Positions 2,861-18,055 of a stretch of DNA of 64,000 bases are shown here, piece by piece. A program made the position numbers and the translations under genes. The stretch is taken from IMG/VR virus record IMGVR_UViG_3300038423_000132, one strand, 5' to 3'. Source of the stretch: an uncultured virus (IMG/VR IMGVR_UViG_3300038423_000132). Taxonomy: Duplodnaviria; Heunggongvirae; Uroviricota; Caudoviricetes. The notes below the pieces were generated by a model that was not told where the DNA came from, did not search any database, and saw only the letters and a program-made list of their open reading frames with translations. Position 1 is the stretch's first letter; every line of letters starts with the position of its first letter.

Positions 2861-4780
2861 TCAATCATTCGCCGACGTACTCGCCAGCACTTCCACGTTG
2901 GTTGTCGAGATCCCATCCTCCATGACCTCGGTAAATTCGATGAACGCCGTCCCCGGAACTTCCGGCACGGCGCCGGCCCTGTGACTTTCCGCAGCCAGCA
3001 AGATTGCCGTGTCCAGTGTCGAGTCGAGCAGCATCCGATTCAGCTTGCGCCGGTCCTCTCCCACGATAGTTTCTGAATCGTCGAGCACCACGAAGTTCCA
3101 GCCGCTGACAATCGCAAGGGCAACAGAGAACGCATTGGCGAAGCGTAGCTTCTCGCTCCGGCTCAGCATGTGCAACTGGCAGGCGTACTGGCTGCCCGTT
3201 CTCCGCACGCTGAAACTCCAAGGCTCAATCGACAGCGAGAACTCGTAGCCCCACTTCGATAGCACGGCGTTGATCTTCTCTTCGAACCCACCGATGTGTT
3301 TGGCGATCAACTCAGCCTTGACTCCCTTGGGGCCGAAGTAGGCGACCAGGCGTTCCAGCCGATCCAACTCCGCGTCGAGAGCAGCCTTGACCTTCAGCGC
3401 CTTCGCGGCATCTTCTTTGAGGGCCTCCGCGCGCGCGGCCTGCTCGAGAAATCCTGTGCCCTTCTGAATACGGGCGTCGATGTCCGCGATCTTCTCGTCG
3501 AGCGAGTCCGGCTTCGGCAGCTCGTCAGGATTGATTGCGTGGGCGTCTTCGTTGGCGCTCGCCGCGGTACGTTCGAGATCCTTGATGCGCTTGTCGATGC
3601 GCTCCACATCCTCAGCGACCGCGTTGTGGGCGTCCAGCTTCTGCTGTGCGCCGGTGGGATCGCCCAGGGCCTTCCGCTTGTCGTAGTCGGCCTTCTGCTC
3701 ACCCTCCATCGTGTCGATGCGCTCGATCAGCGGAGCGCCAAACTTCTCAATGAATTCTTCGGTGATGGGCTGGCAGCACGTCGGGCACTGGCCCTTGTCC
3801 CCAAGTGCGCTCAGGGCTCGGTACTGCTTCTTCTCGGCCTCAAGCCGTATGGCACGGTTTGAGATTGCCGCGTCCAATTCAGCCGCTTTCTTCGCCCCGG
3901 CCGCTTCCTTCTCGTACTCTTTGACCTTGGCCTTCGGCAGCAGGGCTTCGGAGACCCTGGCGCGCTCGGCCTGCTCGGTCACGATCTTGGCTCGCGCCTC
4001 GGCCGCCCGCCGCTCGTGGTTCGCCTTGGCGTCCCTGGCGCGCTGAATCTCGCCAGCGAGCCTTTGCTGCTCGACGGCCAGCGCGGTGCGCTCCTTCTGC
4101 CTGGTGGCGAGCAACTGCCGCACGTCATCGATCGGCGGTCCCTCGTACTTCCCGCTTTCCGCCGGAGGGCGCCAGTCTTTGATTGACCTGTTCACGTCGC
4201 GGCGCATGTCGAAGGCCAGCTTGTAGCAGTGCTCGATGATGACGAATGGCGTCTCCTTCCACGGCGCGCCGATGCGCTGCTCGTGGAGATCGTTCTTGAT
4301 GTTCTCGGGCCAATCGTAGCTGTCGGGAAGAATGATCGACGCCATCAGCGTCTTCTGGTCCTTGGGGTCCATGCCCACAAAGGCGTGGTTGTCGCAGAGG
4401 CAGCCCAGCACGTCTCTGTCGATGCGCAGGTCCTCTTGGAGTGGATTTGGATCCCACGTTTTGTCTGCAGGATTGCGCAGCCCAATCGTGAGCCCGGATC
4501 GGTCGGTCAACGATGCCCTCAGTTCGAGCGGTACGCCGTCGAGGTTGATCCCCAGCTCGACCGATGCCTGCTTCTCTCCGAAGCGCAGCAGATCGGTTTG
4601 CTGGCGCTCCTTGCCGCCCTCTGTCACTTCGCAGTGGCGGGCGAAGGCCATCTCCAGGCAGTTGCGCAGCGAGCTTTTTCCGCTGTGGTTGACCCCTGAA
4701 ATCGTGGTGATCCGCTCAAAGGACAGATCGGTTTCCTTGTGGCTGCGGACGTTCTTGATTTTCGCGCTGGTGATTCGCAT
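2861..4780 (-). CDS. Rad50/SbcC-like coiled-coil ATPase
   Basis: Walker A GVNHSGKSS, coiled coil with central CPTC zinc hook, LSRSE signature-like motif, VVLDD Walker B. Confidence 0.85.
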   Translation of the reverse strand: MRITSAKIKNVRSHKETDLSFERITTISGVNHSGKSSLRNCLEMAFARHCEVTEGGKERQQTDLLRFGEKQASVELGINLDGVPLELRASLTDRSGLTIGLRNPADKTWDPNPLQEDLRIDRDVLGCLCDNHAFVGMDPKDQKTLMASIILPDSYDWPENIKNDLHEQRIGAPWKETPFVIIEHCYKLAFDMRRDVNRSIKDWRPPAESGKYEGPPIDDVRQLLATRQKERTALAVEQQRLAGEIQRARDAKANHERRAAEARAKIVTEQAERARVSEALLPKAKVKEYEKEAAGAKKAAELDAAISNRAIRLEAEKKQYRALSALGDKGQCPTCCQPITEEFIEKFGAPLIERIDTMEGEQKADYDKRKALGDPTGAQQKLDAHNAVAEDVERIDKRIKDLERTAASANEDAHAINPDELPKPDSLDEKIADIDARIQKGTGFLEQAARAEALKEDAAKALKVKAALDAELDRLERLVAYFGPKGVKAELIAKHIGGFEEKINAVLSKWGYEFSLSIEPWSFSVRRTGSQYACQLHMLSRSEKLRFANAFSVALAIVSGWNFVVLDDSETIVGEDRRKLNRMLLDSTLDTAILLAAESHRAGAVPEVPGTAFIEFTEVMEDGISTTNVEVLASTSAND

Positions 4781-4808
4781 TGCGGTGTTCCTCCGTTCGG
4801 TGGTGCGG

Positions 4809-5297
4809 TCAAAGTTCCTTGAGGCTGAATTCGTCGCCGTTCTTGTTCAGCAGGCTCGCCTTGTTCAATTTGCTGATGGCGTCGTAGACGGTCTGCATCC
4901 TGCTCGTCCCAAGATGGATGCGAATTTGGGTGTTGTTCAACTTGCCGTGAATCATCAGGATGTCGATGATCTTCGCGGCTGCTGAGTTCGGCCCCATCTT
5001 CTGCTTCCACGATTCCCATGCGGCCGAGTTCTTTGGGGCACTGGCCGATGGTCCAGGCTCGCCCTGAATTCCCATCGCATCGATTTGGCCGAAGACCATA
5101 CCGAGGGCGTGATAGAGCGGGGCCAGGATTTTCCGCAGTTCGGCAACACCGCCCTCGATGGTTTTGTTCTTGCGGCGCTCCGTGAGAAGTTCGCCTTCGA
5201 GCCTGTCGCCGCGTTCATCTGCCGAACGAAGGGCTCGCGTTAGTTCGTCGATCCTGCGTTGCTGATCCGGCAACGGGTTAAACACCGACAGGGACAT
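4809..5297 (-). CDS. Coiled-coil protein with probable C-terminal winged helix
   Basis: C-terminal IIDILMIHGKL...TVYDAISKLNKASLL..NGDEFSL. Confidence 0.55.
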   Translation of the reverse strand: MSLSVFNPLPDQQRRIDELTRALRSADERGDRLEGELLTERRKNKTIEGGVAELRKILAPLYHALGMVFGQIDAMGIQGEPGPSASAPKNSAAWESWKQKMGPNSAAAKIIDILMIHGKLNNTQIRIHLGTSRMQTVYDAISKLNKASLLNKNGDEFSLKEL

Positions 5298-5889
5298 TGG
5301 AACCTCCCGTCAACTTCGCCCGGAACGCGCCGAGAGTCTGACTTAGCACTGCTGGCGCGCCGACGCGCTCGAGGCCGCGGATGTAGAAGAACGCCAAGCG
5401 CAGAGCGCAGAGATTCAGCCGCGCCTCGGTGTATTGGTCAATCGCCATCACGTACTCGTGCCGGTGCGCGTGAGTGCCAACGATCCAATTCTTAGCTGCG
5501 TTACGCGACTCAACAAGGCGCTTGTAGAGTTCCACATCGCCGCCGTTCGGGTTGTCGGGGTGGCAGGGCTTTACTTTTGCCCGGAATGCCGAGTCGATTT
5601 CCGCAAGCGTCGGTGCTGGGTTTTCAAGTCCGAGCACCTGCTGCCAGGAGAAGTCCTCTTTCGTGAGCGAAAACCAGACTGAAACGCCGGGGTCGAGACG
5701 CTCATCCTCGTGCCGGGTTACGAGAATCGATGTCGCACCCATCTTCCCGAGTTCGGCACTAAGCATCGTCAGGTACTCCGCCCATCGCTTTTTCCATGCC
5801 GATTGGGGTTTCCGTTCCTTGATGCGCGTGCGCTCGCAGCCATCGGGCCAGCGCAGCGGCCGCTCTTCCTGCACGTCGATCTTTTTCAT
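5278..5889 (-). CDS. Phage J-domain (DnaJ-like) protein
   Basis: WQQVLGL...EIDSAFR...CHPD motif; N-terminal PLRWPDG.ERT. Confidence 0.7.
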   Translation of the reverse strand: MKKIDVQEERPLRWPDGCERTRIKERKPQSAWKKRWAEYLTMLSAELGKMGATSILVTRHEDERLDPGVSVWFSLTKEDFSWQQVLGLENPAPTLAEIDSAFRAKVKPCHPDNPNGGDVELYKRLVESRNAAKNWIVGTHAHRHEYVMAIDQYTEARLNLCALRLAFFYIRGLERVGAPAVLSQTLGAFRAKLTGGSNVPVGV

Positions 5890-6242
5890 CGTTTCCTTTC
5901 TCCCTTGCACGCCATCAGCCACGCGAAGTGGCAACGGCCGCATTCTACATGGATGTGCTCGCTAAAAATCCCGAAGCAGGGCACCTTCAGTTCTAGCGGC
6001 CCCATTTGTCCGGTCTGGACGTTAAGCCCCGGGACCTGGACCGTCGAGTTACAGTCCCCCTTGCAATACACGTAGGACTGCGCCGATTCGCCGCGGGAGG
6101 AACGCCACAGGGCCAGCAGCCAGATCCCGGCGCCGAGAGAGCCGCCACATTTCGGGCAGACCGGGAACCGCACCCACGGCTTGACCTCCGGCAGCCTGAC
6201 GCTGGTCTCTTCGGCAACGGGCGCGTGATGCTCGTGGATCAT
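5886..6242 (-). CDS. Zinc-binding hypothetical protein
   Basis: CPKC and HxxCGRC motifs; overlapping start/stop with neighbours. Confidence 0.55.
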   Translation of the reverse strand: MIHEHHAPVAEETSVRLPEVKPWVRFPVCPKCGGSLGAGIWLLALWRSSRGESAQSYVYCKGDCNSTVQVPGLNVQTGQMGPLELKVPCFGIFSEHIHVECGRCHFAWLMACKGERKR

Positions 6243-6493
6243 GGCGTCGGACCCTTTCTGGGCAGCCGGATCATCAGCGCATTCCCGGTAAAGTCGCGGT
6301 CTCCGAAAGGCGACGATGAACTCGACGGCAAATGCTGCCTGACCCATCCGCCCTGGTAGGCATAAAAGCTCCCCTCGTAGGAGATGTCCGGCATCCGTTC
6401 GCGGATCATGCGCAGGATTGCCTTTTCCCATTCACTCTCAGGTGTTAGGGCAAGCTGCGCGTCGTTCTCGTCAAAGTAAAGAGCTGTCCTCAT
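6239..6493 (-). CDS. Hypothetical protein
   Basis: Start/stop coupled ORF in operon. Confidence 0.55.
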   Translation of the reverse strand: MRTALYFDENDAQLALTPESEWEKAILRMIRERMPDISYEGSFYAYQGGWVRQHLPSSSSSPFGDRDFTGNALMIRLPRKGPTP

Positions 6494-7134
6494 GCCCTAC
6501 CTCTGCTGACTTCCTGCTCGTGGAACGCTGCCAGTTGCTTGGGTCCGCTCTTTGCGGCCGGCGGCATCACTTTCACGCGCTGGCCTGGCGGCGGCTGCGT
6601 CAGCGGTAACGTGTCTCCGTCCTCCTCGCCTTCCTCTTCTTCTTCGGCACCGTCGAAGTCGAGTTCGGTCTGAGAGTAGACGGCTTCCATCCAGAAACTC
6701 TTATGGAGATGAGTCCACGCCCAATCCCGAAGATCGATGCTCGCCGGAATGTAGGCCACGAGATGTAATTCCAGTTCGCGTCTCTCGCCTTCTCCCGAGG
6801 CGACCACGGCCAGCTTCTGCATCCGCACGCCCGTGCTGGTAGCCGAACGGCGCTTGCTTTCGTCGGTGGCGAAGATATCGAGCGTAAAACCTTCGAGCTC
6901 GACGTTCAGGCTACTGCGTTCGATTTTCGAGTCATCCTTCGCCATGACGGTAAAGGCTTCGCTGATCGCGCTGTCCATGCCCTTGAGGTTCTGGTTTAGG
7001 AGCGGCATGTGGATATCGAGCTTGATCCGATCCTCTCCAGCCCGCGTTTTCAGATGAGCCCAGGTGTTGAGGGTCGCCCCCCGGCGGTGCCCATTGAAAA
7101 AGCTCTTCAGCTTCGTTGCTTTTTGTGCTGCCAT
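6490..7134 (-). CDS. Hypothetical protein with acidic C-terminal tract
   Basis: 214-aa ORF with GAGG RBS. Confidence 0.65.
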   Translation of the reverse strand: MAAQKATKLKSFFNGHRRGATLNTWAHLKTRAGEDRIKLDIHMPLLNQNLKGMDSAISEAFTVMAKDDSKIERSSLNVELEGFTLDIFATDESKRRSATSTGVRMQKLAVVASGEGERRELELHLVAYIPASIDLRDWAWTHLHKSFWMEAVYSQTELDFDGAEEEEEGEEDGDTLPLTQPPPGQRVKVMPPAAKSGPKQLAAFHEQEVSRGRA

Positions 7135-7149
7135 GATTCGCCTCGTTTC

Positions 7150-7236
7150 TGTGATCCCCGCCGCCTGGTCGCGGAGTCGAACCGGCCTAAGCGGCGGGGG
7201 TTCATCGGCGGGAACGGAGGTACACCGCCGAACTGG
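7150..7236 (-). ncRNA. Candidate anti-Shine-Dalgarno small RNA (two hairpins)
   Basis: Stem 7205-7211/7225-7231 with minus-strand loop UGUACCUCCGUUC; second GC stem (about 7156-7199) containing GGUUCGACUCC. Confidence 0.55.
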
Positions 7237-7428
7237 TTACTTCTTCGCCTTCGCCCAACGCTTGCGCTGCGCCTCCGCGATGCGCTCACGGCCGGCGGCG
7301 CTCAGCTTGTGCTTCGCCGGTTTAGTTGGCTTGGCCGCAGCCTTCGGCTTCGCGCCGCTCAGCACCTTAAATGCCGCCTGGAGTCGACCGATTTCCTTGT
7401 CAATCGCTTTCAGAATGTCGTCTGTCAT
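7237..7428 (-). CDS. Small basic putative nucleic-acid-binding protein
   Basis: K/A-rich; ends LSAAGRERIAEAQRKRWAKAKK. Confidence 0.75.
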   Translation of the reverse strand: MTDDILKAIDKEIGRLQAAFKVLSGAKPKAAAKPTKPAKHKLSAAGRERIAEAQRKRWAKAKK

Positions 7429-7464
7429 GGTTCCTCGATGCAGCCGCTCCGCTGCCGGTGATGG

Positions 7465-8298
7465 TTAGAAGTAGCTGTCGGCCGGCTTGGCGCTCTGCGT
7501 CCCGGTGCCGGTGGACCGCTGCTCGGTTTGCTCGGGCTCGTGCCGCTCCTCGGCCTGGTCCAACTCGTGCTCCACGGCCGCGGCCTCCTGCGCGGGTTCT
7601 TCCTGCTGCGCCGCTTCCGCTTGTGCTGCAGGCTTTGCCGCGCCCCGCGCGCGCGCGCCCACCAGCTTCTTCACGGCGTCCGTCTTGCTGGTCGCTCCGT
7701 CGATGATGGCTTTGCCCGCGAACTCCGGGTTGCCCTCGATCGTTTTGGCCTCGTCCTCGTCCACAATCCCAGAGATCGAAAACGCGATGCGAGAGCACTG
7801 CACAAATGCTCGGTTGCGCGTCATGCGGATCGGCATGGTGTTCCACGGGATCGTGTCGCGCTTGCATTCGTGGGTGTACTCAGTGACGACGACGGGCAGC
7901 GCGCAGTCCTTGCGGTGGATCTTGCAGGTGACCGCCTGAACTTTGCCTGTCTCCTCGTCAAAGTGCTCCTCGAACTCAATGCCGTTGAGCTGTTTGCGGC
8001 TGTTGACGATTTTGCTCCATCCGTCCACGCTCACCACGATCAGGAGTTTGCCTTTCGAGCGGAACGCATAGATTTCTTTCAGGAATGGGTTGAGGTCGTG
8101 AGCATTGCAGACGATCAACGCCGCGGCCACTTCCTCATTCGAAAGCGGTGGCTCGTCCTTGCCTCCCTTGAAAACAGTTGCGGCGACCAGGCTCATCACC
8201 TTGGTGGGGTCGACATCAAACCGCTCGGCAAAGGTTGCTACTACCCCTTTCCGCGTGGTTGTTGCGAGTGCTGTGGTCTGTTCCTTCGGTTCTGCCAT
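7465..8298 (-). CDS. bet: RecT/Bet-family single-strand annealing recombinase
   Basis: LNPFLKEIY, VSVDGW, W..MP.RM.R.RA..Q..R.AF motifs. Confidence 0.9.
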   Translation of the reverse strand: MAEPKEQTTALATTTRKGVVATFAERFDVDPTKVMSLVAATVFKGGKDEPPLSNEEVAAALIVCNAHDLNPFLKEIYAFRSKGKLLIVVSVDGWSKIVNSRKQLNGIEFEEHFDEETGKVQAVTCKIHRKDCALPVVVTEYTHECKRDTIPWNTMPIRMTRNRAFVQCSRIAFSISGIVDEDEAKTIEGNPEFAGKAIIDGATSKTDAVKKLVGARARGAAKPAAQAEAAQQEEPAQEAAAVEHELDQAEERHEPEQTEQRSTGTGTQSAKPADSYF

Positions 8299-8314
8299 AA
8301 CTCCTCCGTTCGGG

Positions 8315-8551
8315 TTAGTAACGTTTCGGTGTCGTGAGCACGGGCGGGCATTCAACAACGAACCGCCCCATTCCGTCGACACGGATCAACCAAAGCGCAC
8401 CGAGATTGTCGAGCGCCAGTAGGTTGTCTTGAAAGTAGAGAACCTGCACCCAGATCGGGTCAGGATAAGTATAGACGACCTTGGGCACGTGAACGCGCCC
8501 GCGTAGGGTGCGCCACGCCATGACCAGACGTTGCCTGAAAGAAACCGTCAT
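8315..8551 (-). CDS. Hypothetical protein
   Basis: ORF preceded by CCGAACGGAGG. Confidence 0.65.
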   Translation of the reverse strand: MTVSFRQRLVMAWRTLRGRVHVPKVVYTYPDPIWVQVLYFQDNLLALDNLGALWLIRVDGMGRFVVECPPVLTTPKRY

Positions 8552-8569
8552 GGATGTCCTCCGTTCGGA

Positions 8570-8881
8570 TTACTGGTCCTGATTCATGCAGGAGATGCTG
8601 CAAAAGCGCAACGTCTCCCAGTCCAGGCTTTTGAGCCACGGACATTCCAAGGTGATAGCTTCGTTGACCGCTGCCAGCACAGCTTGAACCTTGACATCGT
8701 TAGGAGCGATCAGCTCAAGAATCATCGTCCTGTCATCCATGTTTCGGTGAGTGCCCGAACAAATCCACCCCGCCAGATCACTGTTCTGCTCCCGCAGGAT
8801 AGCCACCGCCCGCCCACAGACGTAATAGGCGCCTGTGAGTATCTTTTGCGTAGACTTGACAGTGACGATGTGAGCTATCAT
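8570..8881 (-). CDS. Hypothetical protein
   Basis: ORF packed in operon. Confidence 0.55.
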   Translation of the reverse strand: MIAHIVTVKSTQKILTGAYYVCGRAVAILREQNSDLAGWICSGTHRNMDDRTMILELIAPNDVKVQAVLAAVNEAITLECPWLKSLDWETLRFCSISCMNQDQ

Positions 8882-8897
8882 TTCTTCCGCCTTCAGC

Positions 8898-9107
8898 TTA
8901 CTGAATCATTGTTGTGGGCATCGTGAGCCCGCTATCTGGCAACGGTGCGCCGACCGCCATGTCTTCGATGTCCTTGTACGGGATGCCTTCGTGGTTACAC
9001 CGTGGACAATCGCGGGGCGGGCCTTCCCAGATCGCGCCGCACCCCCTTCGAACACACACCATGGCCGTCGATTGGTTGAGGATGGTCACTTCTTCCACCA
9101 CGCGCAT
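8898..9107 (-). CDS. Small zinc-ribbon protein
   Basis: CxxxxC...CPRC. Confidence 0.5.
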   Translation of the reverse strand: MRVVEEVTILNQSTAMVCVRRGCGAIWEGPPRDCPRCNHEGIPYKDIEDMAVGAPLPDSGLTMPTTMIQ

Positions 9108-9541
9108 AGAGCATCAAAAAGCGAAGAGATTGGATGCTTGTCTTCGCCCTCAAGGAGACGGAAATTACGGGCAGCTTCTTTTTCGAGCGCGTCAATAGGC
9201 AATCCAACCTTCGCCGCCATCGCGCCACGCCAATAAGCCGGGTCATTTTGGATGCCTCTCGTTGGATCGACATAGAGTTCGGGAGCAGTGCGCAACGGAC
9301 GCCAGGAGAGAAAGGGCGCATTCCCTTTCGCGTCTGACTCCACGCTGGAATGCGTATTCCCGTATCTAAACCAACCGTCGCCGTTCCAGGCGAAGACTCC
9401 GTACCAGGGCGCGACTCCAAAAGTGCAGCGGATTTCAATGGGCGATCCATCGCGCGGAGCGTGCTCCATTGGCATCCAGTCATGCAAGGAAGTCATTTGC
9501 GTGCGCTGGAAATATGCCCCTATCTTGAGTGCTCTTTTCAT
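9086..9541 (-). CDS. Hypothetical protein
   Basis: ATGA overlap with upstream stop; W.PME.APRDG motif. Confidence 0.55.
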   Translation of the reverse strand: MKRALKIGAYFQRTQMTSLHDWMPMEHAPRDGSPIEIRCTFGVAPWYGVFAWNGDGWFRYGNTHSSVESDAKGNAPFLSWRPLRTAPELYVDPTRGIQNDPAYWRGAMAAKVGLPIDALEKEAARNFRLLEGEDKHPISSLFDALCAWWKK

Positions 9542-10530
9542 TTCCTTGACCACCATGCCCGCAAGAAGGCAGCGCGCTGTTCTTCCTCGGTGTGTGCCTT
9601 CACGATCTCCGGGTGAAGCGGGCCTACTTCCTTGCCCACGGCCTCCCAATCGGTAACCAGCTTCTTCTCCGGCCTCACCCAGCCCACGCTGCCCATGGGC
9701 GTAATGGCCTTCTGTGCGTCTCCGATGAGCGCCCGCAGGTGATTGTTCGCCTCGCGCTCGCGGGCCTCCCAGGTGGCTTTCTGTTCGCTGGCGGCCCGCA
9801 TCTCCGCGGTGAAGTCCAGAATCTCCTGGCTGGGCTTGGTGATGACCTCGCCGGTCGAGAGCGAGAACTTGCGGGCGAAATACGCTCCGCAACTCACCGT
9901 CTGGTCGATGGGCGGTTCAGTCTTCTTGACAACATAGTCGTGCCAGAATGCGCGGGCGACTTCCGTCATGTTGCGCTCAAACACCGGGTCCCGTTCGATC
10001 CGGTATTCCTGAAGCGTATTGCCAGAGAAGAGGACGCCAAAATTCCAGCCAAATGCTTCGCAGATTTTCATGTACCATGAGTCGGCCACGAAATAGTGGG
10101 CCGGCACTTCCTCGCTTCCCTCGGCGCCCCACTCTCCCGACTTGCGCGCGGAGCATTTCCCCTCGTATCCGCGATTCATAGAAGGAATCCAGCCGTCCGG
10201 GGCGGCGATCATCCAGGGCTCTTCGCCGATGACCAAGTTGATTGCGTTCCATGGCCGCGTGTTCTTGAAGTAAGCGCTCAGTTTTTCAGGGGCGATCACA
10301 TCAACGCCGAGGCGCTGCGCATAGCGATCGCGTACAATAGGTTCGAGAGCGAGTCCCCACCACAGCATCTCGGAGTCGAGGGCGGGGATTTTTTCTGGGG
10401 CGACTTTTGCTTCCCAGACTTCGAATGGGGTTTTCCACGGGCTAAAACCAAGAATTGCGGCTACGTCGCTCCCGCCGAGTCCATTGGCGCGCGACGCCGC
10501 GTAGGATTCTTTCTCTTCGTATACGCTCAC
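9538..10530 (-). CDS. YqaJ-like viral exonuclease
   Basis: GLGGSDVAAILG.SPWKT, G..LEP, APDG, E.K; near RecT. Confidence 0.92.
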   Translation of the reverse strand: MSVYEEKESYAASRANGLGGSDVAAILGFSPWKTPFEVWEAKVAPEKIPALDSEMLWWGLALEPIVRDRYAQRLGVDVIAPEKLSAYFKNTRPWNAINLVIGEEPWMIAAPDGWIPSMNRGYEGKCSARKSGEWGAEGSEEVPAHYFVADSWYMKICEAFGWNFGVLFSGNTLQEYRIERDPVFERNMTEVARAFWHDYVVKKTEPPIDQTVSCGAYFARKFSLSTGEVITKPSQEILDFTAEMRAASEQKATWEAREREANNHLRALIGDAQKAITPMGSVGWVRPEKKLVTDWEAVGKEVGPLHPEIVKAHTEEEQRAAFLRAWWSRK

Positions 10531-10569
10531 GATTGCCCTCCGTTCGGTGTACTTACCGGGCAAGGATGC

Positions 10570-10965
10570 TCATAAGGAGGGTTGTGCGCCCTCATCGGCA
10601 TACCTTACCAGATAATTCTCCGGCATTAAGTTGCAAACGATTTGCTGACCTGCTCTCAGGGCTTGGCCGCGTTTCTTAAATTCGACAAAGAACACTTTTC
10701 CGTCTTTCACCGCTACGCGGTCACAGACAACGGTGGGAGAAAACACCTGAAAGCCCTGCATTTCCAAATCCGCCGCCATCTTTTGTTCATTGTTAAGCTG
10801 TGCTAGTCTGCGACGACTCTGAGCCTCTGAAGAATAAAATCCGCCTGCGTGCCGTCTCTTATTCGAGTTTTTGCCGTTTTGGCTCATTGCCAGCTTGCGA
10901 GCCGGAGTCATCAAAAAATCTGTCATTGGCGCGCTCGATCCCCGCTTAAAGTCATGCTTGTTCAC
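10570..10965 (-). CDS. VRR-NUC-like PD-(D/E)xK nuclease
   Basis: DRVAVKDGKVFFVEFK...L..GQ. Confidence 0.6.
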   Translation of the reverse strand: MNKHDFKRGSSAPMTDFLMTPARKLAMSQNGKNSNKRRHAGGFYSSEAQSRRRLAQLNNEQKMAADLEMQGFQVFSPTVVCDRVAVKDGKVFFVEFKKRGQALRAGQQIVCNLMPENYLVRYADEGAQPSL

Positions 10966-11177
10966 AGCTCCGCGATCTGCACCGACTGGCGCAGCTTGGC
11001 GGCCTTTTCTCGCGTCTCGGCCACATAGTTCGTGCCCGGCGCGTAGGCTTCCAGAAGATCCCGCACATAGGTCCCCAGCGGCTTCTTTGCCGCCTTCGCC
11101 TCGGCTTTCAATTGCGCGATGGTGGAGTTGTTCAGGCGCCAGGAAACGGTGGTTGTCGGTCTGCGGTGTCTGCCCAT
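10962..11177 (-). CDS. Ribbon-helix-helix-like regulator
   Basis: TVSWRL....AQLKAEAK....LGTYVRDLL. Confidence 0.6.
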   Translation of the reverse strand: MGRHRRPTTTVSWRLNNSTIAQLKAEAKAAKKPLGTYVRDLLEAYAPGTNYVAETREKAAKLRQSVQIAEL

Positions 11178-11186
11178 GGTCCCTCG

Positions 11187-11504
11187 CTACTTCTTCGCCG
11201 GCTCAGCCGGTTTAGGAACGCAGTCGGGGTCGGCGTTCACGCTGTCCTGGTGGAGTTGGAACTTGTCGCCGCACACTTTCTGCAGGGCGTCGACCGCCTG
11301 GCGCCAAACCTGGGCTGCGCTCTGCACGTCCCGCTGCGCAGCTTCCATCTCGCGCTGTGCGCGTTGCTGGGCGGCATCGGCCGCGTAGAAGTCCTTCAGC
11401 AATTCAACCGGGATCACCGGCGGCTTCTCGGGCGACTTGGCCGCTTGTGGATAGACCGAGGCTGCCAGAAGGCCAGCCAGGATGAGGAGTGCGATTCGCT
11501 TCAT
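11187..11504 (-). CDS. Small exported coiled-coil protein
   Basis: Signal peptide MKRIALLILAGLLAA; C-terminal Cys pair. Confidence 0.65.
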   Translation of the reverse strand: MKRIALLILAGLLAASVYPQAAKSPEKPPVIPVELLKDFYAADAAQQRAQREMEAAQRDVQSAAQVWRQAVDALQKVCGDKFQLHQDSVNADPDCVPKPAEPAKK

Positions 11505-11537
11505 GTGGAATTCCCCCGCTTTCGGCAATACGCGGTG

Positions 11538-11566
11538 ATAGTACCGCAAGTCAAAACGTATTGCAA
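11538..11566 (-). promoter_or_regulatory. Leftward sigma70-type promoter
   Basis: TTGCAA-17 nt-TACTAT on the minus strand. Confidence 0.6.
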
Positions 11567-11592
11567 GAGGAATTTTCGATAAACATCAATAT

Positions 11593-11636
11593 GTGACAGC
11601 TGTCACGTTGACATTTCTGTCGGATGGGTGTAGGGT
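11593..11636 (+). promoter_or_regulatory. Rightward sigma70-type promoter with adjacent palindrome
   Basis: GTGACAGCTGTCAC (11593-11606), then TTGACA-17 nt-TAGGGT. Confidence 0.6.
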
Positions 11637-11752
11637 GGTCTTCGTCCTGCGCGCCAGCGAAAGGATAGGCGTTCCGGCAGATCACCGGGACAGCGATTGG
11701 CTGGGAGGCGTTCCTTGCGCCTCCCGCCGGCCTCACAAGGAGAGGACAGGGC

Positions 11753-12079
11753 GTGAACGATCAGGATCTCCAGAAAACAACCTTCCGCCAGCGGGTATGG
11801 CAAACGACGCTCGGCGTTCGTGCGAAGTTGCTGCTCATAGCCGCTTCTGAGGTGGGAGCCGTCCAAGGGTTTGAAATCGAAGCCCCGGGAGACCTGTTTC
11901 TCCGGCTAGCACCGATGGCCACCCGGAAACTCTCGGCCGTCGTCCGGACAATCGACAATCTCCAAAAAGTGAAAGTGCTTTTGATCCAACCATCTGCAGA
12001 CGGATACAAGCTCCTCTTCCAACCCGAAAACGAGCGCCATTACTACGAAGAGGGGAAGCGGAGGCCGCGCGCTAAATGA
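11753..12079 (+). CDS. Hypothetical protein, possibly DNA-binding
   Basis: First ORF of the rightward unit, with RBS. Confidence 0.55.
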   Translation: MNDQDLQKTTFRQRVWQTTLGVRAKLLLIAASEVGAVQGFEIEAPGDLFLRLAPMATRKLSAVVRTIDNLQKVKVLLIQPSADGYKLLFQPENERHYYEEGKRRPRAK

Positions 12080-12996
12080 AGGCTCCTGCGTTCCAATTCT
12101 ACCCGAAACAGTGGCTCGGGGACGACAAGGTAATGGCCATGTCGTGGGATGCACGTGCAATGCATATGCATCTGATTTGTATTGCATGGCAACAAGACCC
12201 GCCATGCACACTCCCAGACGATGACGCGATGCTTCGGAGATGGCTCGGAAATCCGCGTGGATGGGAAAGCCTTAAACGGCAGATATTTGCAGCTTGGAAG
12301 CTGATTGATGGCCGCTGGGTGCAAACTGGATTGCTGGAGCAATTTGGGCGTCAAGCGGCGTACCGAGAGAGCCGAAAGAGGGGAGCAGATGCGCGCTGGG
12401 GAACTCATGCATATGCATCCTCAAATGAATGCATAACCGATGCTCTACAGTCTACGTCTTCTACTACATCTACAAGAAAGACTAAAAAGCAAAAACCTTC
12501 CCAAGGGGCAAAGCCCCCTCGGGTTGTCGATCCTCGCTTTGGAGATTTCAAGAAAAACTTCGAAGCCTACTTCCAAGAGGCCAACCAGATTCCGGCAACG
12601 TGGGATGGCAGAGAGGGAAGCGCTTTGAAGGTCTGGCTGGCAGCGAATCCAACAATCGACGTCGCCCAGTGGAGAAAGATTCTCTACTGGAGGCTGAAAA
12701 GCCAAGGCGTAGCACAGGCTACGCGCTTAAGCTCGTGGATCGATGTCGCCATCGGTTGGCTCAAAGGGCCGGCCGACAACTGGGGAAAACCCATCACCGG
12801 AGGAAACAATGGAAAACGCAATACAGCCGTCGAGCGGGAAGCAGCCAACTTTGCTTTCCTACAGCCAGATCTTTCAGGTGAACAAGCCGATAGCCGACCG
12901 GATCACGGCGGCGACGGTGCGCCTGCAGACAGTGAAGGGGAGGGACCTAAACGCCTCAATCCTGGCAGCGTGGATCGAGCAACTGAGCTCTTTTGA
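12076..12996 (+). CDS. DUF1376/YdaU-like replication initiator
   Basis: KAPAFQFYP..WL.D, W.Q...TLPDDD..L motifs; position in replication module. Confidence 0.75.
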   Translation: MKAPAFQFYPKQWLGDDKVMAMSWDARAMHMHLICIAWQQDPPCTLPDDDAMLRRWLGNPRGWESLKRQIFAAWKLIDGRWVQTGLLEQFGRQAAYRESRKRGADARWGTHAYASSNECITDALQSTSSTTSTRKTKKQKPSQGAKPPRVVDPRFGDFKKNFEAYFQEANQIPATWDGREGSALKVWLAANPTIDVAQWRKILYWRLKSQGVAQATRLSSWIDVAIGWLKGPADNWGKPITGGNNGKRNTAVEREAANFAFLQPDLSGEQADSRPDHGGDGAPADSEGEGPKRLNPGSVDRATELF

Positions 12997-13462
12997 CCCG
13001 GTAGCGCTGGCGAATGTCTTCAACCGGGTGGAGCGCGAAGTCCGCGCCTTCCCCGATGTCGCCGATCTTGTCCAGATCCTCGACCGAGCGGAGTTTGACG
13101 CGGCCTTTGCGCTGGTGCTGCGCGGGCTGCGGCGCCATGGCGTCGAGTGGCGGGACCGGGAAGCCTGGAAAGAAAGCGACAAGTGGGACATGACGTCGCC
13201 GGCCGCGATCGCCAAGGGTGACCGGATCCTGGTGCCGGGCAAGGTGCATCCGGCCGAGCCGGCGCCAATCATCCCGCCGCGGATGAAGCGCGCGCTCGAG
13301 CTGTTCGGGCAAGAGGGGATGGTCGAGACCGGCATGCGGCGGCTGATGCGGGACAGCCCAACCCTGTGGACATCTGAGACCGAAAGGGACTCAGGCCAGC
13401 ACGGCCGCCAGGCGTCGCAGATCGAAAGGGACTTGTTGGACTGCTGGAGGCGGAGCCAATGA
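12809..13462 (+). CDS. Replication-associated protein (helicase-loader-like position)
   Basis: GGAGG RBS plus ATG; W..QL...FP..ADL pattern; follows the initiator. Confidence 0.55.
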   Translation: MENAIQPSSGKQPTLLSYSQIFQVNKPIADRITAATVRLQTVKGRDLNASILAAWIEQLSSFDPVALANVFNRVEREVRAFPDVADLVQILDRAEFDAAFALVLRGLRRHGVEWRDREAWKESDKWDMTSPAAIAKGDRILVPGKVHPAEPAPIIPPRMKRALELFGQEGMVETGMRRLMRDSPTLWTSETERDSGQHGRQASQIERDLLDCWRRSQ

Positions 13463-14094
13463 CTGAATCTCTGACTGCTAAAATCCCGCGGATGCACTCG
13501 CCAGTGAATCGGCTGGCAGCACGCGTCATTCAGTCTGGAATCCAGTACGAAGAGACCTTTGTAGCGAAATCCGAGATTGTCAGCGAAGTCCCTCTTCCTA
13601 CGCGCGCTTATCCTTCCTGCGAGCGGCCAGAAGACAATTTAACGGGGCAAAAGTTTGGTCGGTTCACGGTGATTGGGAGAGCAGCTACTTCGGCCTCATG
13701 GGTCGTCCGTTGTGCGTGCGGTCGCTACTGTTACCGCAAAGCCAAGGTGCTCAAGACGGTTGAATTACAGGCAGCCTCTCAGGTCATGTGTCCTAGATGC
13801 AGCAATGTGGCTGGAGGGTCGAGAGCCAATCGACCCGACGCTATAAGCAAAAATCTGCGAGGGGCGGCACTTCCTATGTACGCGGCCCTCAAGGACATCC
13901 TGGCCAACGGCCTCACGACCCACACGCGGGCAAATGCTCGCTATGCGATGGGAATTGCCCTTGGTGAGCCCGAAAGAAATGAGGCGCGCGAAGTGGAGAT
14001 AAAGCACATTTTTATGCGGGATTTTAGAGAGGTGGGGGATGATCCAGGAGCTACGATTCGAGACGGTGCCATTAGCGATCAACCGAAAGGTTGA
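13459..14094 (+). CDS. Hypothetical protein with a homing-endonuclease-type zinc module
   Basis: NLTGQKFGRFTVIG...WVVRCACG, CPRC. Confidence 0.6.
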   Translation: MTESLTAKIPRMHSPVNRLAARVIQSGIQYEETFVAKSEIVSEVPLPTRAYPSCERPEDNLTGQKFGRFTVIGRAATSASWVVRCACGRYCYRKAKVLKTVELQAASQVMCPRCSNVAGGSRANRPDAISKNLRGAALPMYAALKDILANGLTTHTRANARYAMGIALGEPERNEAREVEIKHIFMRDFREVGDDPGATIRDGAISDQPKG

Positions 14095-14272
14095 GTCCGG
14101 TGCCGAGTTCAACACTCGGCTGGACGCTGAGGAGCGGGAGGCGCGCGCTGTGGCCTGCCCGCTGGTGGACAGGTGCGGGGCCCAGGTAGGCGAGCCGTGC
14201 TGCACGGAAGCGGGAGAGCCTAGAATTCGCCACTGTCGGCGTTTGTGGCTGGCGAGGAAGGCGGGGAAGTGA
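14039..14272 (+). CDS. Small zinc-finger protein
   Basis: CP....CGA..GEPC...H..R. Confidence 0.5.
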   Translation: MIQELRFETVPLAINRKVESGAEFNTRLDAEEREARAVACPLVDRCGAQVGEPCCTEAGEPRIRHCRRLWLARKAGK

Positions 14273-16602
14273 CGATACGCAGGATTTACGGAGAAGAGGT
14301 AGACCTGCCCTCTGGGGCAGTTATGGGAGCAGAATTTATCGTGCCAGATCAGAGGAATTGGGGCGAGTATTCGGAGTTTCTTGCGCGAAAGGCTATCGTT
14401 CCGGTAATTTCCGGCCTGAGCGATATTCCTCCACTTCATCCCCGGATGTTTCCCTTCCAGCGCGATGTGGCTCAATGGGCGCTCCGCCTCGGGCGCTCTG
14501 CAGTGTTCCTCGGAACAGGCATGGGAAAAACCCTCATTGAATTAGAATGGTCCAAGCATATCGCCAAGTACACAGATGGCCCAATTCTGATTCTCGCGCC
14601 GCTCGCTGTCGCGCAGCAAACCGTGGAAAAGGAATCTCCGAAGTTTGGATTCGAGTCTCGGATTGTGCGCCATCAGAGGGAGGTTGGCACAGGGATCAAC
14701 GTCACGAATTACGACCGGATAAATGACTTTGACCCATCGAAGTTCGGTGCCGTGGTCTGTGACGAATCGAGCATTCTCAAGTCAATGGACGGTAAGACGC
14801 GCTCTGCGTTGATAGAGATGTTCGCGCGGACTCCGTACAAACTCTGCGCGACAGCAACGCCGGCGCCAAATGACTACATGGAGTTAGGAAACCATGCCGA
14901 GTTTCTGGGAGTAATGACGGCGATGGAAATGCTCGCTATGTTCTTTGTCCATGACGGAGGCGATACGCAGAAGTGGAGACTCAAAGGCCATGCTCGCCGC
15001 GAATTCTGGAAGTGGGTTTGTTCCTGGGCGGTGTCAATGCGGAAACCATCCGATGTGGGCTACGAAGATGATGGCTTCGTGCTGCCGCCAAAGTACGAGC
15101 ACTTCCACGAGGTTCTAGTCGAAACGCCGACCGATGGATTCCTCTTTGCGCTTCCAGCCGAAACCTTGCAGGAACGCATCGGAGCTCGTCGGGCGTCCAT
15201 TGACGAGCGCATCGCAATGGCGATCAGTGTGATTCACAAAGAGCCAGATGAGCAATGGCTTATCTGGTGCAACCTAAATGCGGAGCAAGACGATTTAGCG
15301 CGGCACTTGGGCTCTGATTGCGTTTCGATCTTCGGCTCACTCAATCCCGACCGCAAGGTCGAGTTGCTGAATCTTTGGCTATCCGGCGAGAAGAAATATC
15401 TAGTGAGCAAGGCGTCGATGTTCGGGTACGGGCTGAACCTCCAGAATAGCGCACGGCAATTATTTGTCGGAGTAAATGATTCATGGGAGCAGTTCTACCA
15501 GGCCGTGCGCCGCTCGTGGCGTTTCGGGCAGATGCGCGACGTACATGTGCATATCATCGCCGCCACCACGGAAGGTAACGTGGTTGAGAACCTGAGACGG
15601 AAAGATGCGGAGGCACAAAAGATGGCAGAGGAAATGGCAGAGAACACGCAAGACTTGACCCGCATGAATCTAATTGGCACGTCGCGCACTTCATCGCCCT
15701 ACGTTCGGGACCGAGCCGAGGGTGAGGGCTATCGGATTGACTTGGCCGACTGTGTTGAAATGGCGCGGGAAGTGGCGAACGACTCAATCCACTACTCGAT
15801 ATTCTCGCCGCCGTTCGAAACGCTGTACACTTACTCAAACAGCGACCGCGACATGGGCAACAGCCGCACGTCCGATGAGTTTTGGCAGCACTATCGTTTT
15901 CTAATTAAAGAGCAATTCAGAATCACGATGCCTGGACGCCTTGTGTCGATTCACTGTATGAATCTGCCCACATCGAAGCAGTTCCATGGTTACATCGGCC
16001 TGCGCGACTTTCGCGGGGAAATCATCAAGGCATACGAAGAAGCGGGATTTATCTATCACTCCGAGGTCTGCATTTGGAAAGACCCAGTTACTTCGATGCA
16101 GCGCACGAAAGCTCTCGGTTTGCTCCACAAGCAGATCAAAAAGGATTCCTGCATGAGTCGGCAGGGGATTCCCGATTACTTAGTGACCATGCGGAAACCG
16201 GGAGACAACCCAGAGCGGGTGACAAACACAAATGAGAGTTTCCCTGTAAAGTTGTGGCAGAACTTTGCGAGTCCGGTATGGATGGATATAAACGCTTCAG
16301 ACACCTTGCAAAAGGAATCAGCCCGCGAGCATGAGGATGAGCGGCACATCTGCCCACTACAACTTGAAGTCATCCGGCGCGGGGTGAAGCTGTGGAGCAA
16401 CGTGGGCGATACTGTCTACGATCCTTTCGCTGGCATAGGGTCAACTGGCGTTGTGGCTTTGGAGATGGAGAGGAATTTTCTCGGCAGCGAATTGAAGCGA
16501 TCGTATTGGCTCCAAGCGTGCGCGAATCTAGAATATGCCAGCAAGCGCAGCGACAGTCTTTTTTCTAAAGCTGACGTTTCCGCTTCCGCCTCTTCCTCGT
16601 GA
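14269..16602 (+). CDS. SF2 helicase-N4/N6 DNA methyltransferase fusion
   Basis: GTGMGKT, DESS, TATP, QAVRRSWRFGQ; then SPPF and DPFAGIGST. Confidence 0.9.
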   Translation: MTIRRIYGEEVDLPSGAVMGAEFIVPDQRNWGEYSEFLARKAIVPVISGLSDIPPLHPRMFPFQRDVAQWALRLGRSAVFLGTGMGKTLIELEWSKHIAKYTDGPILILAPLAVAQQTVEKESPKFGFESRIVRHQREVGTGINVTNYDRINDFDPSKFGAVVCDESSILKSMDGKTRSALIEMFARTPYKLCATATPAPNDYMELGNHAEFLGVMTAMEMLAMFFVHDGGDTQKWRLKGHARREFWKWVCSWAVSMRKPSDVGYEDDGFVLPPKYEHFHEVLVETPTDGFLFALPAETLQERIGARRASIDERIAMAISVIHKEPDEQWLIWCNLNAEQDDLARHLGSDCVSIFGSLNPDRKVELLNLWLSGEKKYLVSKASMFGYGLNLQNSARQLFVGVNDSWEQFYQAVRRSWRFGQMRDVHVHIIAATTEGNVVENLRRKDAEAQKMAEEMAENTQDLTRMNLIGTSRTSSPYVRDRAEGEGYRIDLADCVEMAREVANDSIHYSIFSPPFETLYTYSNSDRDMGNSRTSDEFWQHYRFLIKEQFRITMPGRLVSIHCMNLPTSKQFHGYIGLRDFRGEIIKAYEEAGFIYHSEVCIWKDPVTSMQRTKALGLLHKQIKKDSCMSRQGIPDYLVTMRKPGDNPERVTNTNESFPVKLWQNFASPVWMDINASDTLQKESAREHEDERHICPLQLEVIRRGVKLWSNVGDTVYDPFAGIGSTGVVALEMERNFLGSELKRSYWLQACANLEYASKRSDSLFSKADVSASASSS

Positions 16603-16804
16603 CCTTTACCCGCGGCTGGCGCGTGCCGCACTCCGGACACGGCTTCCTGCGCTCAGCCACACCCAGCAAAACGCCGCAGTGGACACACGGCGCGGTTATT
16701 TTGGGTTTGGGGTGGGACCGGGCCGCGCGCCGCCGACCGACCTCGGACCAGAGCTCCGCGTCCGGTACGGATCCCAACTCCCACTCTGGCTCCCACGTCG
16801 TCAT
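16565..16804 (-). CDS. Small zinc-ribbon protein
   Basis: CVHC...CPEC. Confidence 0.5.
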   Translation of the reverse strand: MTTWEPEWELGSVPDAELWSEVGRRRAARSHPKPKITAPCVHCGVLLGVAERRKPCPECGTRQPRVKVTRKRRKRKRQL

Positions 16805-16901
16805 CGAGATCCCACCCATTCGCCCAGCAGGTGCACGGCGTAGGAGAACGACAGGCCGAACAGGGCGCCTACGGCCGCGGCGATCATCTTCTCGGTCAGG
16901 T

Positions 16902-17255
16902 TCATGGCTTGCTCCTGAAAATGACGCGCCATCCGCCGTAGAGCCCGCCGGCGACGGCCAGCCAGCACATCCAACCCAGCGACATGCAGATGAAGGTGAC
17001 GGCGCAAGCCAGGCCTACAACGACCCATCCGGCCGCGATGAAGGACCGGGCGAGGAACGTTCCCACGGGGTTGGGCCGGTGGCTCACGTTCGGCCCCTCG
17101 TGGAGGACGTCAGCCAGGGCGTAGAGGTGGCAGGAGCACGGGCAGGTCTCGTAGGTGCAACGCTCCCCGCCACAGCCCATCATGTCGCAGCGCGTAACCG
17201 GCGCCAGGCCATGCTTGGAGAGAACGCGATTGGTGACATTCTCGGTGAGGGTCAT
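16902..17255 (-). CDS. Small Cys-rich membrane protein
   Basis: Cys cluster plus two hydrophobic segments. Confidence 0.5.
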   Translation of the reverse strand: MTLTENVTNRVLSKHGLAPVTRCDMMGCGGERCTYETCPCSCHLYALADVLHEGPNVSHRPNPVGTFLARSFIAAGWVVVGLACAVTFICMSLGWMCWLAVAGGLYGGWRVIFRSKP

Positions 17256-17674
17256 GGGCGCACCGCCTTGGCGAGCGCGGCGCGGACCGTCTCGAAAGCT
17301 CCATGTGTGGTCGGAATTGCCTGCGCTGCCTGTTGAAGCGCTTCATACATCTCCGGCGCGGCAGCGATAAGGCGCGCGTCCTCGATGGGATGCTGCGAGC
17401 CTGCTACGCCGTAGCGCCCGCTCAGATCAGGTGCGACCATACAGACAGGCGACTGATGGCCGGGCCGTGTCTTGTTCTCGTACCAAACTGCGACGGCCGG
17501 TGCGTCTCCGCTCAGCCAGGGGACGATTTTTTCGTCTGACTTCCAGGGGCCCGGCGTGAATCCCGGTTCGGTGGTTTCTGTGTCATTTTGCGGCGGTTTG
17601 GCGAGCGCGGCATAGGTGAGATCGGCCATGGCCATTATGGCCCGCTCGTGGAAGGTGGCAATCGGTGTAGGCAT
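17252..17674 (-). CDS. Phage hypothetical protein
   Basis: FTPGPW...ARLIAAAPEMYEAL motif; CCGAACGGAGG RBS. Confidence 0.8.
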   Translation of the reverse strand: MPTPIATFHERAIMAMADLTYAALAKPPQNDTETTEPGFTPGPWKSDEKIVPWLSGDAPAVAVWYENKTRPGHQSPVCMVAPDLSGRYGVAGSQHPIEDARLIAAAPEMYEALQQAAQAIPTTHGAFETVRAALAKAVRP

Positions 17675-17693
17675 TGTGGATCCTCCGTTCGGT

Positions 17694-17906
17694 TTAGGGT
17701 CGGTAGTTCACCATCTGCTCGTCGAATCGTTGCTCTTGCAGCTCGCGCCATGCCTTCTTCCCGCACCCATCGCCGGCGCACAGCACCTGCTTGGTAGCTG
17801 GGAAGTACAGCGCGTCCTCGCCCTTCTTGATCCCGAACCCGCACCCGGCACACTTGGCGCCGTAACGCGTGACGAGCCAGAACGGGGCGCTACTGCGGCG
17901 GTTCAC
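17694..17906 (-). CDS. Small zinc-binding protein
   Basis: RY..KCAGCG..IKKG; GGAGG RBS plus GTG. Confidence 0.6.
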   Translation of the reverse strand: MNRRSSAPFWLVTRYGAKCAGCGFGIKKGEDALYFPATKQVLCAGDGCGKKAWRELQEQRFDEQMVNYRP

Positions 17907-18055
17907 GGTGTTCCTCCTCGGCGTTCTCCGTGGGAATGTGCTGGCAGCGTTTCTCGGCGCGATCCTGAGGGCAGTAGTAAGTGCAAGGGGCCTCAAACAG
18001 ACGCCACATTCGAACGCCTGGATCATACACGATCCAAGCCTTGCACCATGAGCAT

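Follow-up and report, generated by a model that had tools for sequence, protein, structure and literature searches.

Why do five early genes of a single phage start behind the same eleven letters? The question arises in a 64-kb phage genome segment (G+C 59.8%) from an uncultured peat phage of the Caudoviricetes, IMG/VR record IMGVR_UViG_3300038423_000132; we call this whole analysed stretch of 64,000 nucleotides (nt) the window. Its leftward early genes include those for a YqaJ/RecE-like exonuclease, a RecT/Bet-like annealase and an SbcC/Rad50-like ATPase. Each of the three, together with two genes for small proteins, is preceded by an exact copy of the 11-mer CCGAACGGAGG (minus-strand reading; CCTCCGTTCGG on the plus strand), which is referred to as the box. 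Its position gives good support for the box being the site at which ribosomes bind to the mRNAs of these five early genes. We put at about even the chances that it is, more specifically, a lineage-specific, start-associated, extended Shine-Dalgarno (SD) box which would act in cis via the ribosome, and the copies of which would owe their exactness to a common origin.

An exact 11-mer before five early genes

An exact search of the window found the 11-mer at the five places given in the preliminary description, with the spacing of 4–9 nt to the start codons that was reported there, and also at a sixth place, 46154, which that list had missed (Table 1). Chance could be ruled out as the origin of the repeat, as six copies stand against 0.04 expected and none of 100 shuffles reached six. 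Apart from a 24-bp tandem repeat, it is the top repeated 11-mer of the window. Its density is 94 per Mb in the window and ∼0.4 per Mb in five non-host bacterial genomes, where 9 copies were counted in 20.4 Mb versus 11 for a reversed control. A scan of viral contigs for the box followed by ATG returned at least 120 stretches, with a single locus per contig among the matches listed, and is uninformative about enrichment. As a separate observation, an unrelated viral contig (L155, 108–172) has the 11-mer twice, inverted, as 13-bp arms 43 nt apart.

All five start-linked copies lie in untranslated spacers. They are restricted to the leftward early clusters and have one orientation, and three of them are placed exactly 1 nt behind the TAA of the upstream open reading frame (ORF), at 8314, 8569 and 17693. 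The starts of RecT, YqaJ and SbcC match the N-termini of their homologues. The spacing from box to start is variable, which is SD-like and unlike the fixed spacing of an operator linked to the start codon. In a survey of the 70 predicted genes, 55 had an SD-like 4-mer and 19 had GGAGG 3–12 nt before the start; the 5′ flank CCGAAC was common to five of these 19 GGAGG sites, and the remaining 14 flanks all differed. Inspection of the window found no variant of the box with one or two mismatches at a gene start, so that the pattern is all-or-none. The edges of the repeat are also sharp, the stretch common to any pair of copies being at most 13 nt. Accessibility prediction placed the box sites roughly on a par with other GGAGG sites in being unpaired.

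The sixth copy is no ribosome site. It falls within the probable major capsid gene, where it is read in frame as the codons CCT CCG TTC GG and is antisense to transcription, with no start codon within 3–12 nt. The probable capsid mRNA carries in this way an 11-nt complement of the box.

We then compared the box with the 3′ tail of 16S rRNA. It contains GAA-C-GGAGG and is one mismatch away from GAAAGGAGG, the full complement of the common tail; the tail ending in ...GGATCACCTCCTTTCT was exact in three of five bacterial genomes from three phyla. The GAA of the box can pair with UUC in the common tail (...CCUCCUUUCU). Duplexes with this tail were predicted at −11.6 kcal/mol for the box, −9.3 kcal/mol for GGAGG alone and −16.3 kcal/mol for the perfect complement. 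Elsewhere in the window, the genes at 31664 and 5889 have GAAAGGAG and GAGAAAGGA, both of which fit the common tail; this suggests that the host has such a tail and that the C of the box is a genuine mismatch. None of the five copies departs from the 5′ CC or from the internal C, yet these bases are unpaired against the common tail, which here stands for that of the host. These bases appear unexplained by rRNA pairing, whereas the GAA may be explained by it.

The preliminary description had considered the six bases 5′ of GGAGG as not required for SD pairing. This stands for the CC and the internal C but not for the GAA, which can pair with UUC and which recurs in the GAAAGG-type sites of related phages described below. 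Other parts of that interpretation are supported: the repeat is tied to translation starts, its frequency is far above chance, and it contains bases that SD pairing leaves out. The box is like an ordinary extended SD sequence in its GGAGG core, its spacing and its extra pairing with the 16S tail, and the relatives too have SDs of the GAAAGG type. It differs in that ordinary SDs vary by gene, as do all 14 of the other GGAGG flanks, while the box has the same eleven letters at each of its five sites.

The 63-aa (amino-acid) protein encoded at 7237–7428 gives a weak hint of the host. The Atlas clusters nearest to it consist of small hypothetical proteins, in the largest cluster mostly from Acidobacteriota, and the host might belong to this phylum.

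Related phages and the origin of the box

Scans of viral, metagenome and genome collections with RecT returned fragments identical to the window (L003 and L050) and then relatives at 57–70% identity; these collections contained no relative closer than 70% RecT identity except the identical fragments. The best RecT match in bacterial genomes was 48%, and prophage-like matches were at most 48%. Scans with the 140-aa and 78-aa proteins, the products of the two small box-bearing genes, found only the phage itself. The relatives keep the core order YqaJ-RecT-(0–2 genes)-SbcC-...-HNH-DnaB, SbcC and HNH being separated by other genes. In the window, additional ORFs lie between YqaJ and RecT and between RecT and SbcC, and the latter block contains a spacer with predicted hairpins, to which we return below.

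The preliminary description had argued that five identical copies imply selection, and it had itself named absence of the motif before orthologous genes as evidence to the contrary. No relative has the 11-mer in front of its orthologous YqaJ, RecT or SbcC gene. The exact sequence was found in 0/135 related loci, and three whole related records (58–69 kb) lacked it even with one mismatch allowed, so that selection acting on all eleven letters is unsupported.

What precedes the orthologues instead are GAAAGG-type sites, which we observed before SbcC in 6/6 loci, before RecT in 7/9 and before YqaJ in 5/7. Occurrences of GAAAGG in the relatives precede ORFs of at least 50 aa in 8/11, 5/9, 4/6, 10/20 and 6/10 cases, compared with 5/34 in the window. 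GAAAGG is a general ribosome site of early genes in the related phages. The orthologues keep only a related 6–8-mer, for example CCGAAAGG before RecT of the relative L004, which is 1 nt from the window's CCGAACGG. In L004, moreover, a 12-mer, GAAAGGCAAGGT, is common to the YqaJ and RecT sites, and GAAAGGNAAGG has 3 and 2 copies in two relatives versus ∼0.1 expected from window shuffles. At the recombination genes, a ribosome site that is extended and partly repeated is thus a family trait, and the exact CCGAACGGAGG is private to the lineage of the window.

The box is not the only initiation string that recurs. A second one, GGAGGAACACCG, has three copies (Table 1). Two of them run directly into the GTG starts of small cysteine-rich ORFs (17694–17906 and 17890–18081) and lie within the final codons (..EEHR..) of the ORF upstream; the third overlaps box copy 1, making the SbcC site a fusion of both strings. 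A near copy, GGAGGCAACACCGCATG (∼32152–32171), is found before the plus-strand gene at 32169. Because initiation strings recur in this genome beyond the 11-mer, copying or common origin is favoured over five independent selections. We also considered that ancestral ribosome sites lie upstream and that inserted blocks brought the box; this idea was dropped, as the alignment of the g69 junction with L007 and L008 was ambiguous.

An extended SD box of this kind would work as follows. GGAGG would pair with the anti-SD CCUCC, and GAA would add three pairs with the UUC of the 16S tail across one C·U mismatch, giving a two-part SD of intermediate strength. This presupposes a host 16S 3′ tail containing CCUCCUUUC. 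Ribosomes finishing the upstream gene could re-engage at the box, since it is located in short untranslated spacers and in three cases 1 nt past the upstream TAA. The YqaJ exonuclease, the RecT annealase, the SbcC-like ATPase and the two small proteins would then share the same initiation signal, by which their expression might be matched. The letter-for-letter identity, including the three bases that cannot pair with rRNA, would most likely come from common origin, initiation strings having been re-used or copied as accessory genes were inserted between core genes. Under this explanation a dedicated regulator of the box is not required.

The closest known analogue of the box is the start-associated sequence (SAS) of Cluster K mycobacteriophages (Pope et al. 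2011, PMC3203893), which lies 3–7 nt before starts and the reader and function of which are given as unknown in the parts of that paper devoted to it. By this account, both are short asymmetric repeats that combine an SD core with conserved bases unable to pair with 16S rRNA. Both are confined to the non-structural part of the genome, where they precede start codons by a few nt and have a single orientation, and both have a lone copy of opposite orientation away from starts. They differ in sequence (CCGAACGGAGG in the window and GGGATAGGAGCCC in the SAS) and in number, 5 start-linked copies among 70 genes in 64 kb, which may not be the whole genome, against 11–19. Near-consensus variants at starts are absent in the window, whereas the SAS has a few deviating copies; the box is without the upstream inverted-repeat extension (ESAS); and it is not kept in the nearest relatives, whereas the SAS is kept across three subclusters. 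The phage, and very probably its host phylum too, is unrelated to Cluster K. Three features of the SAS are found here (the link to starts, conserved bases that do not pair, and early location in one orientation), and two are lacking (copy number and conservation in relatives).

Several points weigh against the proposed extended SD box. SD pairing explains neither the identity of the CC and the internal C in five copies nor the sharp edges of the repeat, and it leaves the lack of copies with one or two mismatches at starts unexplained. Sharp and exact sites are rather the expectation for a sequence-specific reader, and Pope et al. argued likewise for the SAS in the sections just cited. Three of the box genes belong to a vertically inherited core and the sites of the relatives differ, so that a concerted change must be assumed. 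The pairing rests on the common 16S tail, and the tail and the ribosome sites of the host may differ from it. Four peat metagenome runs were near-clonal, having 5 isolated single-letter differences in 16 kb, one cluster of differences (16074–16161) confined to one contig, and two deletions of 1 nt near 7285; no variant lay at or near any box copy, although four near-clonal runs give no measure of constraint. A sequence complementary to the box exists in a hairpin of the same operon. Finally, we know of no process that copies an 11-nt string to five places.

Other candidate readers of the box

The hairpin just mentioned brings in the explanation that comes second, although we hold it to be unlikely: that the box is the target of an antisense RNA from the same operon. 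The 102-nt spacer 7135–7236, between ORF 7237–7428 and ORF 6490–7134, is the largest in the operon and has two predicted hairpins (−44.6 kcal/mol). In its loop and 5′ arm, hairpin 1 exposes CCUCCGUUC, 9 nt perfectly complementary to the GAACGGAGG of all five boxes, and the four loop bases CUCC are 0.94–0.95 unpaired in the predicted ensemble. By a hand estimate, the chance of a 9-nt match in ∼1.6 kb of sense-strand spacers is ∼0.03. Complementarity to the SbcC initiation region reaches 16/17 nt, the best among 28 early initiation regions, and duplexes of hairpin 1 with the sites were predicted at −17.8 to −26.3 kcal/mol. The loop differs from the common 16S tail ACCUCCUUUC at the exact base that faces the odd C of the box. 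An RNA of this kind would block initiation by pairing with the GAACGGAGG of the five sites, among which that of SbcC would be bound the most strongly. Hairpin 1 might be released from the polycistronic transcript at the tRNA-like hairpin 2, and the probable capsid mRNA, in which the sixth exact copy is antisense, could add to its effect late in infection.

The preliminary description had proposed the RNA of 7150–7236 as the reader of the box. The complementarity on which this was based does exist; conservation and an Rfam family were not found, a search for RNA sequencing runs containing the stretch returned none, and the 16/17 match is matched by controls. Such matches were obtained with 1/28 queries in two of three control schemes (0/280 with shuffled queries). 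For the window as a whole, the match to SbcC is nothing unusual; where it lies is its one suggestive aspect, and this is a post hoc judgement. The extra 7/8 match is confined to the SbcC spacer, where an inverted DNA duplication of that site fits as well as selection for pairing does. The spacer folds only weakly better than its shuffles (z −1.8), 13 of 200 of which fold equally well. No promoter-like or terminator-like site was seen to bound a separate RNA. Rfam gave no match at gathering score in the window, and a search of 7050–7320 with E up to 10 returned a sole match, to an unrelated small-RNA model (E 0.26; 14.9 bits against a threshold of 70). In the relatives, no convincing counterpart of the hairpin was found that might provide covariation, the only one-mismatch matches being two in coding DNA, at chance level.

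The nearest known system for such an RNA is the c4 antisense RNA of phages P1 and P7 (Citron and Schuster 1990, as presented in part in PMC8198154). As there, a structured RNA would lie within the operon, upstream of its targets, and would expose bases complementary to a ribosome-site region downstream in the same transcript; the neighbouring hairpin 2 looks tRNA-like. The RNA of the window differs in being predicted from sequence, in having no Rfam match, in having one complementary stretch of 9–17 nt instead of the two loops reported for c4, and in its targets, which would be five sites up to several kb away, one of them in a second operon.

A more elaborate form of the antisense explanation, which seems to us rather improbable, is an anti-ribosome-site regulon. 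The loop of the hairpin would mimic the 16S tail (ACCUCCGUUC, one base off ACCUCCUUUC), and the C of the private SD variant GAA-C-GGAGG would compensate for the altered base. Only the five genes would be shut off, the RNA being released possibly at the tRNA-like minihelix and the capsid mRNA adding late.

Some further observations concern the hairpin spacer and its surroundings. At 7135–7236 no tRNA or tmRNA was found, and ARAGORN calls no tRNA for hairpin 2. In a contig of a Phycisphaerales metagenome-assembled genome, downstream of a RecT homologue (L130, 11260–11520), there are two T-arm-like words, each followed by a seeming acceptor strand and D-arm in permuted order. ARAGORN called no tRNA for these words either, and they may be permuted or split tRNA-like elements. 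Directly upstream of the spacer, 7237–7428 encodes the lysine-rich basic 63-aa protein, a possible nucleic-acid binder on weak grounds. An apparent likeness of the spacer to the RecT-SbcC spacer of L006 came down to two short words (CCT(T)CCGTT and GAAACGAG) and was lost on alignment. Transposon ends around 4799–7209 were also rejected, as no target-site duplication was seen by eye and no transposase family was found; many longer inverted repeats arise by chance, 407 pairs of at least 14 nt having been counted in 21 kb.

That a protein reads the box is also doubtful, and to about the degree of the regulon. The box would be the operator of an RNA-binding protein of phage or host, which either represses translation, in the manner of T4 RegA or CsrA, or cuts the mRNA, in the manner of T4 RegB, so that the recombination genes are switched together. 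RegA operators reportedly lie in the ribosome-site region of early mRNAs and are read by a phage protein. The asymmetric site recurs exactly and has sharp bounds; some of its bases cannot be read by rRNA, and it has an A-N-GGA core. The five genes include the functional set of exonuclease, annealase and SbcC-like ATPase. Many early proteins are without known function, for example the lysine-rich protein upstream of the hairpins, any of which might bind RNA, and for the SAS the passages of Pope et al. on this point left a host or phage factor open (PMC3203893).

A scan of 72 phage proteins, however, gave no match within its E-value limits to CsrA, Hfq, cold-shock proteins or any other RNA-binding family that could be recognised, and none to a RegA- or RegB-like protein. 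Each leader has a single box, about half unpaired, and no hairpin that presents the GGA, whereas CsrA operators have the GGA in a hairpin loop and usually two or more sites per leader; with this, and with no CsrA-like protein among the 72, the CsrA-type operator which the preliminary description had offered as an alternative is unsupported. The spacing to the start varies over 4–9 nt, and the box is not kept in relatives. According to the portion of PMC1702504 that describes it, the RegB/S1 target is, like the box, 11 nt long; it is based on GGA(G), with the GGA at its 5′ end, plus a 3′ part that is degenerate and rich in A. As with RegB and RegA, ribosome-site regions of a set of early mRNAs would be read together to switch genes. 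The polarity is opposite, however, since the invariant part of the box is 5′ of GGAGG and its 3′ flanks differ.

We consider it quite improbable that the box is mainly a recombination joint, comparable to a lambdoid boundary sequence or to the PeSLs of T4-type phages, at which accessory blocks end, swap and insert, the ribosome role coming along. Synteny with the relatives breaks at the box, the extra ORFs being those between YqaJ and RecT and between RecT and SbcC. The box marks the passage from accessory to core genes ahead of YqaJ, RecT and SbcC, and it flanks the 78-aa ORF at either end; the phage codes for its own RecT/YqaJ recombination pair; and initiation strings recur in direct and inverted orientation. 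PeSL cassettes (Arbiol et al. 2010, PMC2839356) consist, in the part of the report that defines them, of a promoter and terminator stem-loops of tens of bp, for which exchange between close relatives was demonstrated. Like them, the box is a repeated expression signal that borders non-essential genes, within an early region that is variable and in which relatives differ in gene content. It is, however, an 11-nt ribosome site with no promoter- or terminator-like site at any copy and no partner genome. No other phage was found to carry it, neither among the 135 related loci nor, with one mismatch, in the three whole relatives, which leaves it without an exchange partner. The blocks bear the box at their downstream edge only, the 78-aa ORF excepted, and 11 nt is very short for homologous exchange. 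None of the contigs of the four runs lacks the 78-aa cassette, though contigs drop rare forms, and alignment with the relatives gave no clear borders at the nucleotide level. The junction repeat that the preliminary description had listed among its alternatives would be compatible with the synteny, though no relative was found to carry the box.

It is very improbable that the box is a DNA site for a phage DNA-binding protein, of the type of the stoperators reportedly described in Cluster A mycobacteriophages: an asymmetric site of 11 bp in short intergenic spacers, with six exact copies in one absolute orientation, the late-gene copy included, would fit, but GGAGG at SD distance in all five spacer copies needs no DNA role, the divergent control region 11505–11752 has no copy, and the family search found no repressor among the proteins scanned.

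Gene map and significance

Fragments identical to the window occur in viral and in peat/wetland metagenome collections (L003, L050 and G001). The left 21 kb has two leftward early gene clusters with a rightward cluster (11753–16602) between them. The long leftward cluster codes for DnaB, HNH, an ASCH protein, the SbcC/Rad50-like ATPase, RecT, the YqaJ/RecE-like exonuclease and many small ORFs without family. A rightward module of structural and lysis genes takes up the right 43 kb; its family matches are few and include an SU10-adaptor-like protein; a probable SU10-type major capsid protein is an Atlas lead only. Family matches bore out the gene labels Rad50-like, RecT and YqaJ of the preliminary description (Table 1). 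The frame of the 78-aa ORF has the top codon score of the three frames.

Table 1. Coordinates of the box copies, the second initiation string, the predicted hairpins and the genes that carry the box
Feature	Position	Strand	Remarks
Box copy 1, CCGAACGGAGG	4790–4800	minus	9 nt 5′ of SbcC ATG 4780; 8 nt past TGA of ORF 4809–5297
Box copy 2	8303–8313	minus	4 nt 5′ of RecT ATG 8298; 1 nt past TAA of ORF 8315–8551
Box copy 3	8558–8568	minus	6 nt 5′ of ATG 8551 of the 78-aa ORF; 1 nt past TAA of ORF 8570–8881
Box copy 4	10537–10547	minus	6 nt 5′ of YqaJ GTG 10530; 22 nt past stop of ORF 10570–10965
Box copy 5	17682–17692	minus	7 nt 5′ of ATG 17674 of the 140-aa gene; 1 nt past TAA of ORF 17694–17906
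Sixth exact copy	46154–46164	plus	In probable major capsid gene 45677–46963; same absolute orientation as the other five; not at a start
Second string, GGAGGAACACCG	17906–17917	minus	Runs into GTG 17906
Second string	18081–18092	minus	GTG 18081
Second string	4783–4794	minus	
Hairpin 1 (predicted)	7205–7231	minus	Loop and 5′ arm GCGGUGUACCUCCGUUC (7228–7212)
Hairpin 2 (predicted)	7156–7199	minus	Long G+C stem closing a T-arm-like GGUUCGACUCC hairpin; tRNA-like minihelix
SbcC/Rad50-like ATPase gene	2861–4780	minus	639 aa; AAA_23/SMC_N, PHROG SbcC-like; core; 33–36% identity to relatives
RecT/Bet-like annealase gene	7465–8298	minus	277 aa; core; closest relatives 57–70% identical
78-aa ORF	8315–8551	minus	No family, no relatives; box on both flanks
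YqaJ/RecE-like exonuclease gene	9538–10530	minus	330 aa; GTG start; core; relatives 51–58% identical
140-aa gene	17252–17674	minus	phrog_1273; no match in three whole related phage records (an empty answer of little weight)

A few other features of the window were noticed. About 10 tandem copies of a 24-bp unit (19435–19680) lie within the minus-strand gene 19285–20028 (phrog_18079) and give an 8-aa repeat; 24-bp tandem arrays are also present in the relatives L004, L007 and L008, in a gene immediately downstream of RecT. A region of ∼430 nt (9108–9537), which separates YqaJ from the next confident ORF (8898–9107), has no convincing gene, and a 162-aa ORF there scores poorly on codons. One 785-aa ORF (14245–16602) fuses an SNF2/DEAD-type helicase with an N6/N4 DNA methyltransferase domain, and its GC3 is under the 0.68 cut-off met by most neighbouring long ORFs. 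An HNH endonuclease gene (46975–47844) is placed on the opposite strand directly after the probable capsid gene, amid the rightward structural module, as homing endonucleases are. The structural module ends with a 1971-aa protein (57764–63679) that has a 2′-5′ RNA ligase-like domain (E 8e-9) and a sub-threshold match to Acb1 (anti-CBASS) at residues ∼937–1052.

Invariant repeated ribosome-site boxes in phage early regions have been described since the Cluster K SAS in 2011. The box of the window marks a functional set, exonuclease, annealase and SbcC-like ATPase; a single base separates it from perfect complementarity to the 16S tail, and a hairpin of the same operon contains a sequence with the compensating base. 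The question that it raises is whether such boxes are only strong ribosome sites that copying has spread, or whether a regulator made by the phage acts on them; in the former case the finding would be an ordinary one. If the regulon is true, a phage would have evolved an orthogonal SD/anti-SD pair for the translational control of a specific gene set.

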